Of a stretch of DNA of 64,000 nt, positions 1 to 1,325 are shown piece by piece. The position numbers are program-made. The DNA is from Escherichia coli (GTDB taxonomy: Bacteria > Pseudomonadota > Gammaproteobacteria > Enterobacterales > Enterobacteriaceae), in NCBI RefSeq assembly GCF_044324785.1, contig NZ_CP172129.1; one strand, written 5' to 3'. The first letter of the stretch is position 1, and every line of letters starts with the position of its first letter.

Positions 1-1325
1 CCGTGCCTCCATCTTAGCCGGGCTGGCGTTGATGCAAGCAACTGTCTTAATGGGAGGCGGTTATCTGAAAAAAGTACGGGATAATATTATGGAATCGCCC
101 ATCTCAAGCAAAAAACTGACTCGCTTCGATACTACGCTGACAGGCTGTTTTGAGCGAGATATCTCTCGTGTCGGGCATCGACATTTTAAATGATTCTAAA
201 TAATATGAGCAGGGTCAGTCTTATTAAAGATTAAAACACCGGATAACAAGTTTTATTGATTATGGATGAAGAGAAAACTCGTGCTGAAGTGGCACACATA
301 GAATTTATTTCATATGGTACGTCTCGAATTTTTGATAGGCGTATGAGATCCTTAGACTGGAAGCGTAAGGTTGTCACCTTCCTTGGGGTCTTTGTTCCAC
401 TGATGATAGGTTGTGCAGTTTTATCATTCGGACTTGAAGCTCCATTTCTGCCGCTTTGCATCACAATTGCCGGTGTGGCAAGTATCATGCAATTGGGGTT
501 CTCGCTGTGGTCTTTGGTTTCCGGATGGGATCGCTCATATAGTGATTGCATGGCTTCCGTTAAGGAAAATACAGCCATTTATAACCTAGCTGGTAGTGTT
601 CGCAAGAAAATAGGTAAGCTTGACGAAGCCAAATTGGAAATTTTGATAGACGATTTGACGGAAAAATTTGAGCGAAGGGAGCAGGAAGACTTAACTTTGT
701 GTGTGAGTGATAAAGAACTTCGTTATGCAAACCGTATGTCCTGTTTCTACTTCAAAAAAAAATGCCATATTTGTAATGTCGTTCCCCTAACTTTGAAACC
801 GGGAAAATGTGTTTGTGATGGTTGTGGGAAATTTTAACAAGGAGAACATATGAGTAGTGCAAAAATTCTTAACGCTTACTTCGAGGCTTCTGAAGAAGAT
901 CGAAAGGAGTTCCTACGGGTTCTTAGTCATTTTTATAAGGATAACCGAAGAGTACCTCTGCAAGAGGGCATGGAGAGCTTTGCCGTCAATGAAAGCATCC
1001 GTAAATCGCAGTCAATTAACTTTGCCCCTATGCAAGGTGGGTGTCCACTCTGCGGCAAGTAACGACCAAAGCCGCTTGACTAGCGGCTTGATAGATTTCT
1101 TTATATTGTAACTAGCATCTTTACATCCTGTTAAAAAAGTGGCTATTGCCCGCTATCTTGCAATTCTCCGTATTTGGTACAAAAACAGCCGAAAGCTGCA
1201 CTATCAGCAGCTATGAGCAGCGGCCCCACTGACATCGCGGATGCTTTGTCCGTGGGAGGGCGGATCACAACAGGCCTGCGGGATAAGTTGTTCTTTCTGT
1301 CATTATGTAAAATGACCGGCAGTCA

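Follow-up and report, generated by a model that had tools for sequence, protein, structure and literature searches.

The 64,000-nt stretch of Escherichia coli contig NZ_CP172129.1 that we analysed (the window) carries two adjacent genes on its plus strand, gene A (262–837, 191 aa) and gene B (850–1062, 70 aa), which form a self-contained, horizontally mobile module that travels jointly across phyla. By analogy with membrane effectors of the SLATT type, our favoured if tentative reading is that the pair may be a two-gene defence module of the abortive-infection type, with protein A as the membrane effector and protein B as its sensor or regulator. This reading draws on the SLATT-like fold of protein A, on its obligate pairing with protein B and on the repeated occurrence of the pair in defence-island neighbourhoods. 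On the plasmid of the window, the pair is probably cargo inside an insertion of ISEc32, an element of the IS110 family. A first-pass annotation, made from the sequence alone, had reported the two tightly spaced genes, and both open reading frames (ORFs) are present where it placed them. Its comparison of the pair to abortive-infection or toxin–antitoxin modules gains support from the same observations, whereas a toxin–antitoxin module in the strict sense is weakened by two of the loci described below.

The two proteins and their pairing

Protein A is a full-length member of TIGR04402, an NCBIfam family catalogued without an assigned function (185.8 bits against a cut-off of 70, residues 8–191 aligning to profile positions 2–180 of 180). 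It is also covered by the Pfam family PF27874 (Mob_CxxC_CxxC), which is precomputed on all close homologues, and on hundreds of plasmids it carries the RefSeq label 'mobilome CxxCx(11)CxxC protein'. The name of the family implies a distribution on mobile elements, as we find for the pair here. The spacing of the family motif is x11, whereas that of protein A is x13 owing to an extra Cys-Val, a two-residue insertion. The first-pass view that neither protein can be recognised thus does not hold for protein A. It does hold for protein B, for which searches of Pfam, NCBIfam, PADLOC and PHROG found no family and whose database homologues are all named 'hypothetical protein'. Neither protein had a usable match in scans of Pfam-A, PADLOC and PHROGs, and no solved relative of protein A emerged when the PDB was searched by sequence and by fold. 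When 1.84 billion representative proteins were searched with a profile, the protein A family comprised 442 clusters at 50% identity, whose members are nearly all stand-alone proteins of 180–210 aa.

The AlphaFold2 model of protein A (pLDDT 95, pTM 0.86) contains helices at residues 3–56, 63–87, 89–116, 122–146 and 150–164, arranged as a long basic helix, a membrane hairpin, three cytoplasmic helices and a Cys-rich tail. Kyte–Doolittle hydropathy marks a hydrophobic stretch at residues 35–83. Hydropathy and the model agree on two adjacent membrane helices at about 35–58 and 62–86 with a four-residue loop between them, in line with the two hydrophobic helices noticed in the first pass. The segment then described as a coiled coil is indeed helical; in the model, however, it lies within the cytoplasmic bundle formed by the last three helices. 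The Cys-rich tail also noticed at that stage has the form CxxC-x13-CxxC (C168, C171, C185 and C188). In an alignment of 80 homologues, all four cysteines and G50 are invariant, and T20, R27, P46, Q77, W89, N103, D143, E152 and P175 are nearly so; several of the conserved residues fall inside the membrane helices or at their ends. According to the model, protein A is an inner-membrane hairpin with both termini in the cytoplasm (N-in/C-in) and a C-terminal four-Cys zinc ribbon. The C-terminus is placed in the cytoplasm because a zinc ribbon requires a reducing environment.

When the model was searched with Foldseek, it matched proteins named SLATT. Among these were clearly divergent SLATT proteins (11–19% identity) with E-values of 3e-6 to 8e-3 and TM-scores of 0.5–0.8. 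In UniProt, several members of the protein A family bear the names SLATT or DUF4231. Like protein A, the SLATT effectors (SLATT_1–6, DUF4231) have about 180–200 aa, an N-terminal cytoplasmic helix, two adjacent transmembrane helices and C-terminal cytoplasmic helices, and both groups occur in defence islands and mobile elements. Protein A differs in that the zinc ribbon is an addition at its C-terminus and in that its partner is a zinc-knuckle protein of 60–76 aa, whereas SLATT proteins are partnered by a CD-NTase, SLOG, TIR or reverse transcriptase. We thus regard protein A as a membrane hairpin that is SLATT-like but divergent, bears an extra zinc ribbon and falls outside the defined SLATT families. 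Proteins of the SLATT type are predicted to be pore-forming effectors (PMC7159879). Type I CBASS and DRT10/UG17 require them as effectors, and in RADAR and DRT3 they are accessory (PMC9226505; PMC11381338; 10.64898/2026.04.29.721553).

Protein B is a soluble protein of 70 aa with an N-terminal two-helix unit and a zinc-knuckle-like tail, INFAPMQGGCPLCGK. It ends in CPLCGK, as the first-pass annotation had stated. Across the protein B family, the C-terminus is invariably [FL]-[GA]-P-x3-5-C-P-x-C-G-[KR]-stop, and the N-terminal helical segment approximates V-x-x-V-L-x-G-F-x-x-L-x-x-x-E-R-x-E-F. The best match in the PDB is a knuckle like those of C2H2 fingers, the tail resembling their first knuckle. 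As it has only two cysteines, protein B cannot complete a zinc site alone, and a second copy of B or the ribbon-bearing protein A might supply the rest. The tail of B resembles the second knuckle of the A ribbon, with P-x-x-C-x-x-C-G-[NK] at the C-terminus of both proteins. We rejected homology between B and A, as the profile–profile alignment (hhalign, probability 51%) is limited to nine columns, the last nine residues of B; the resemblance is one of motif only.

A B-type ORF of 60–76 aa lies immediately 3' of gene A in about 30 of 33 distinct loci. These loci were taken from genome, viral, metagenome and encoding contigs and from plasmids; a 14-sequence alignment yielded few genome and viral loci, and a metagenome scan was added. 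Among 29 non-identical pairs, the two genes are separated by a spacer of 7–21 nt with a Shine–Dalgarno sequence or share a 4-nt overlap (ATGA). In the window, the gap is 12 nt and contains the Shine–Dalgarno sequence AAGGAG (839–844, plus strand), read off the sequence 5 nt ahead of the ATG of gene B. The pairing persists where protein A is only 25–35% identical to that of the window, and it ranges from Proteobacteria to Rhodococcus (Actinomycetota). Judged by sequence conservation, the pair is not a product of chance ORFs, since both genes are conserved jointly across phyla. On the Rhodococcus plasmid NZ_CP039433.1, the homologue of gene B (L063 6503–6715) overlaps the end of gene A and is absent from the RefSeq annotation; small partner genes of the B family are likely often missed by annotation. 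The exceptions to the pairing are an intact A without B in Photobacterium (L010), an intact A followed by a decayed B that is interrupted and lacks the motif (L048), a truncated A with B missing (L050) and a contig that ends before B could appear (L051).

The compact operon with its small second gene and translational coupling could also describe a toxin–antitoxin or addiction module, in which A would be a membrane toxin and B a labile antitoxin that stabilises the plasmid, prophage or island. The fact that the pair is always found on mobile DNA fits this account as well. However, intact A stands without B in Photobacterium and beside a decayed B in the second of the above loci. Furthermore, the antitoxin of a classical type II system is usually encoded first and binds DNA, whereas family and fold searches detected no DNA-binding family or fold in protein B. 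The carrier plasmids moreover already own maintenance systems, such as sopAB next door. We consider a toxin–antitoxin module improbable.

Gene A starts at the ATG at 262, with a TTG at 256 as an alternative start. The conserved core of the pair (234–1104) has a G+C content of 41.8% compared to 53.2% for the whole window, which ranks among the lowest 4.7% of same-sized windows and bears out the AT-rich stretch described at first. Downstream of gene B, RNAfold predicts a terminator-like hairpin at 1069–1089 (plus strand) with an 8-bp GC-rich stem, −13.4 kcal/mol and a T-rich tail; this hairpin and the Shine–Dalgarno sequence of gene B had both been noticed before. A simple terminator scan did not call the hairpin. 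A candidate sigma-70-like promoter for the pair lies at 178–206 on the plus strand (TCGACA-17-TAATAT, 9/12 matches in a consensus scan). It is a weak candidate, as the number of sigma-70-like sites does not exceed the shuffled expectation.

Genomic neighbourhoods and proposed function

Most of the long loci contain known or candidate defence genes at a distance of no more than about 6 kb from the pair. In Pectobacterium (L002), where the pair adjoins a P4-type integrase, the neighbours include a retron RT-Toprim gene (711 bits) and a PLD nuclease. In Enterobacter pulveris (L005), an anti-phage dCTP deaminase is found (438 bits versus a cut-off of 400). Two metagenome-assembled genomes carry an AriA/PtuA-like ATPase (L006) and an EcoAI-type HsdR with IetS (1400 bits), that is, Iet plus type I restriction (L008). 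Metagenome contigs add an Old nuclease with Hp1 (L027) and CapP (L042). Other loci contain a RecD2-like helicase near a comM fragment (Duganella, L009) and a dGTPase that scores as the housekeeping type (Vibrio, L007). The mobile contexts are a lambdoid prophage of Pantoea (L003), where the pair sits in the early-left region between repressor and integrase and beside Dam and a second methylase, a small mobilisable plasmid (L056) and a Mu-like viral contig (L012), whose genes were read as Mu-type from ORF translations only. The genes that flank the pair differ in every long locus, and the sole conserved neighbour of gene A is gene B. The main argument for a role in defence is thus guilt by association: the surroundings of the pair are repeatedly defence islands or mobile elements.

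The small mobilisable plasmid, found on a contig of ERZ25067264, was assembled as a concatemer in which a unit of about 11.5 kb is repeated. Its gene order is RelB/YafQ, ParA, RepA_C, MobC/NikA, the A/B pair and an orphan N6/N4 DNA methyltransferase, which gives a second setting that resembles a leading region.

Protein B is a small cytoplasmic partner that shares its transcript with A. If the pair is a defence module, B would hold A off or switch A on when it meets a phage-derived trigger. Such control may act through a zinc-mediated contact with the ribbon of A, which we propose because the B tail resembles the second knuckle of that ribbon. By analogy with the SLATT proteins of type I CBASS and DRT10, A would form oligomers once activated and make the inner membrane permeable or depolarised, which would halt phage production; the outcome would be abortive infection. 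A comparable arrangement is RexAB of phage lambda, a two-gene module on a mobile element whose small inner-membrane protein is thought to dissipate the membrane potential. RexB has four transmembrane helices and is paired with the large sensor RexA, whereas the soluble partner in the A/B pair is tiny and cysteine-dependent. No sequence or fold relationship links the two modules (there is no PADLOC match, the presence of RexAB in that library being unconfirmed).

Several results weigh against the defence reading. The Pfam models of SLATT and DUF4231 do not match protein A of the window, and none of its 80 relatives reaches E<=0.001 with them; at E<=0.1, two match SLATT_4 and two match DUF4231. 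A search of NCBIfam likewise matched no SLATT model to protein A, so that the profile scan for SLATT suggested by the first pass gave no significant sequence-model match. The proposed scan for known defence systems was also negative: none of the 5,027 models of PADLOC-DB v2.0.0 matched protein A or B at E<=1. We detected no nucleotide-signal synthase (SMODS/CD-NTase), SLOG, TIR or reverse transcriptase as a conserved neighbour of A, and the usual activation logic of SLATT proteins is thus absent. In an AlphaFold2 model of A fused to B by a linker (26-row paired alignment, pTM 0.58), the two helices of B were placed at moderate confidence and its tail was not confidently placed (pLDDT <50 at residues 262–285), so that no A–B interface can be claimed. 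The link to defence islands is drawn from about a dozen long loci without an enrichment statistic, the site on the window plasmid is a leading region with no defence island, and gene A is dispensable, perhaps costly, on the plasmids disrupted by IS1 (see below). In the literature searched, we found no mention of the TIGR04402/PF27874 family or its accessions, and hence no experimental datum for any member. Lastly, no homologues were found in 50,697 sequenced phages.

The lack of hits in phages also counts against superinfection or entry exclusion, in which A and B would block the entry of phage or plasmid DNA at the inner membrane without killing the cell, as P22 SieA does. An inner-membrane protein A and the presence of the pair in the early-left region of a lambdoid prophage, in the Mu-like viral contig and on conjugative plasmids are consistent with such a role. 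However, only about four residues of A would be exposed to the periplasm and all of its conserved soluble parts are cytoplasmic, which better fits a cytoplasmic sensor, and many copies reside in chromosomal defence islands rather than in phages. We give exclusion little credence.

Alternatively, the pair may have another role, such as membrane stress signalling or an accessory function for a recombinase, or none that is detectable, and its defence neighbours would then reflect shared integration hotspots. Such hotspots gather all kinds of cargo, and half of the plasmids can do without the pair. Against this, A is strongly conserved at P46, G50, Q77, W89/D90 and all four Cys, and the pairing of A and B has been kept from Proteobacteria to Actinomycetota, implying selection on a joint function. 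In addition, the pair is found without an IS110 recombinase in Pectobacterium, E. pulveris, Pantoea and others. This explanation appears unlikely, although it has more in its favour than exclusion or addiction.

The pair is not categorically new, since the protein A family already has a catalogue entry and some of the names given to its members in databases hint at a SLATT-like nature. What appears to be undescribed in the searched literature and databases is the zinc-knuckle partner, the absence of a signal-generating enzyme and the association with defence islands. The descriptions of TIGR04402 that we found include neither a partner gene nor a SLATT-like fold, defence neighbourhoods or a context as IS110 cargo.

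The ISEc32 insertion and its probable cargo

The presence or absence of the pair in related plasmids, a check proposed in the first pass, points to how it came to its site. About 2,900 other F-like plasmids match only window 1–38 at this site and do not carry the pair; one of them, pTA115, provides the empty site. In an alignment of pECOS88 to pTA115, window 39–2465 is a single insertion of 2,427 bp that holds both the pair and ISEc32. The insertion is flanked by AAG on the left (36–38) and on the right (2466–2468), whereas the empty site reads GATGC-AAG-GGTACGC with a single AAG. In the orientation of the insertion sequence (IS), the repeat is CTT and includes the CT core typical of IS110-type insertions. 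The outer (right-end) terminus (39–51, minus strand, CAACTGTCTTAAT) begins at the first inserted base in the comparison with pTA115; there is only one exact copy of this sequence in the window, and the right-end terminus of the IS reads CAACTGTCTT. The recombinase gene of ISEc32 lies at 1323–2294 on the minus strand and encodes 323 aa (WP_000082154.1, 'IS110-like element ISEc32 family transposase'). It is followed by the non-coding left end of 171 nt (2295–2465, minus strand).

This left end contains matches that resemble the guides of a bridge RNA. Within it, TCAACTGT (2329–2336) matches the outer terminus at 39–45 in a k-mer comparison with the joined ends, and ACGCTTGCAT (2373–2382) matches both flanks of the target site in a k-mer comparison with the empty site. 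Judging by what is known of IS621, a bridge RNA of an IS110 element would be expected to be arranged in this way. The matches are 7–10 nt long, and the same motifs are present in a Klebsiella relative. They fall in two successive stem-loops of the minimum-free-energy fold, whose energy is no better than that of shuffled sequences (z-score 0). In a search of window 1–2700, Rfam returned no family, neither a type I antisense toxin RNA nor a catalogued bridge RNA.

The Klebsiella relative is an IS110-family element on plasmid pINF298.4, which is inserted at the same site (compare L058 3536–3538 and L061) and is 75–79% identical in the recombinase region. The place of the A/B pair is taken there by a DUF4209 gene, which scores as the PADLOC candidate PDC-S39 at 344 bits. 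The first 11 nt past the junction are identical in both insertions (CAACTGTCTTA), whereas beyond these the cargos are unrelated (alignment z-scores of 1.8 and 0.7). More distant IS110 relatives (about 70% identity), which are common on Klebsiella plasmids, occur in a different context and were of no help in defining the ends.

We conclude that the A/B pair is probably cargo inside an IS110-type element, based on the single 2,427-bp insertion, the sister IS with other cargo and the guide-like matches to both terminus and target. The first-pass description of accessory cargo beside an IS110 element is thus right about cargo, whereas the pair lies inside the same insertion rather than beside it. 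Like the IS110 bridge-RNA elements of the IS621 type, ISEc32 has a single DEDD-type recombinase gene, no terminal inverted repeats and a short repeated core (CTT/AAG). IS110 elements usually measure about 1.2–1.5 kb and consist of the recombinase gene and short non-coding ends. The block in the window, unlike these, contains 1,284 bp of AT-rich cargo (39–1322) between the recombinase gene and the outer terminus. The pair would have reached the plasmid within an ISEc32 insertion aimed at the inverted repeat upstream of the leading-region antirestriction gene. If the cargo moves with the IS, the circle junction would read ...AGATAT-(AAG)-CAACTGTC....

One observation counts against cargo. ISEc32 is listed as 1,180 bp by MobileElementFinder (PMC8703133), and hits of this length imply a reference ISEc32 of about 1.2–1.3 kb without cargo. 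An end of ISEc32 at about 1286–1288 (AAG at 1285–1287) is therefore a live alternative. We disfavour it because the 1,180-bp hits come from plasmids with an IS1-associated deletion that keep only window 1286–2465, because by eye the left end of ISEc32 has no match to 1288 onward, and because the terminus at window 39 is all that the Klebsiella element has in common here. With one known insertion site, the mobility of the whole block is only putative.

At the nucleotide level, the Pectobacterium and E. pulveris copies are homologous to the window across 234–1104 only, and the match stops at 1089–1104, by the hairpin that follows gene B. No IS110 recombinase gene is present at these loci, nor at that of Pantoea and at other loci of the pair, so that the pair also moves without ISEc32.

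A combined and more doubtful picture joins the cargo to its proposed function. Here, a SLATT-like effector would be under the control of a zinc-knuckle protein of 70 residues, which would sense a phage cue by itself, without nucleotide second messenger or cDNA, and IS110 bridge-RNA elements (ISEc32 and its Klebsiella relative) would ferry interchangeable defence cargos, either the pair or PDC-S39, into the leading-region hairpin.

Carriage on F-like plasmids and implications

The pair is located on IncF plasmids of the ColV type, such as pECOS88, between sopAB and the leading-region genes for antirestriction, DUF1380, DUF3560 and a methyltransferase. We found it on 346 plasmids of PLSDB and in 340 of 5,426 complete E. 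coli genomes (about 6%). All copies of the E. coli lineage are at least 99% identical and have the same flanks, and the three chromosomal copies in E. coli are integrated plasmids. Outside this lineage, only eight plasmids have a homologue (from Streptomyces, Flavobacterium, Rhodococcus and Plesiomonas).

In 181 of the 346 plasmids, gene A is interrupted by IS1 at about position 593 (L001 6648–7345). About 140 of the IS1-bearing plasmids have also lost window 594–1285 and with it gene B. The disruption leaves a truncated 111-aa protein that is annotated as 'mobilome CxxCx(11)CxxC protein'. A few other copies contain frameshifts. That disruptions on E. coli plasmids strike A while leaving B intact would be tolerable if A were a toxin, and could thus be read in favour of a toxin–antitoxin module. 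However, the IS1 copies share one position and seem to stem from one ancestral insertion, which makes them a single observation. For the same reason, the decay carries little weight.

The location on IncF plasmids raises the possibility of a role in establishment or anti-defence, in which the pair would be expressed early in the recipient and protect the incoming plasmid. It sits at the distal edge of the leading region and points the same way as the genes for antirestriction, DUF1380, DUF3560 and the methyltransferase. On the small mobilisable plasmid it follows MobC/NikA and precedes the orphan methyltransferase, and the Pantoea prophage copy is near Dam and a second methylase. However, the position on IncF plasmids is due to one IS110-type insertion rather than to conserved synteny, given the 2,900 or so F-like plasmids that do without the pair, and elsewhere the pair resides mostly in chromosomal islands that also hold defence genes. 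To our knowledge, a membrane hairpin is not among the anti-defence architectures. We regard this explanation as highly improbable.

The insertion splits a 32-nt inverted repeat (90%), whose arms extend upstream of the window and are now found at window 1–23 and 2629–2660 (L057 4793–4824 and 7430–7461). On uninterrupted plasmids, about 230 nt separate the repeat from the antirestriction gene downstream of it, and the two arms are spaced about 175 nt from each other. The repeat may serve the leading region as a single-strand (Frpo-type) promoter hairpin, in which case the insertion should alter the early expression of antirestriction. The junction at 38/39 is straddled by a RefSeq protein upstream of gene A (WP_001350917.1, a 115-aa 'hypothetical protein', window 1–193, L057 4647–4994). 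As it spans the insertion junction, it is probably a chance ORF created by the insertion and not a gene.

Just upstream of the window, L057 4021–4450 contains about ten tandem 43-bp units that are 88–93% identical and lie 3' of a sopB-like gene; they presumably form a sopC-type partition site. Within the window, 3886–4343 is GC-rich (0.58–0.64) with a strong negative AT skew, long overlapping ORFs on both strands and a run encoding KKKKNNNK. By its appearance, this region is non-coding or repetitive sequence and not a set of genes.

Should the pair prove to be a defence module, it would represent a minimal system of the SLATT type whose activation is independent of a signalling enzyme, since its sole partner is a protein of 70 residues. 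How SLATT proteins are activated has been called an open question in a preprint on DRT10, and the pair would offer a simple handle on how these effectors sense their signal (10.64898/2026.04.29.721553). A natural cargo within a bridge-RNA element would show that such elements move foreign genes, as would two relatives that place different defence candidates at one target hairpin. As the pair resides on ColV/IncF virulence plasmids, it could affect phage therapy and plasmid ecology in extraintestinal pathogenic and avian pathogenic E. coli (ExPEC and APEC).

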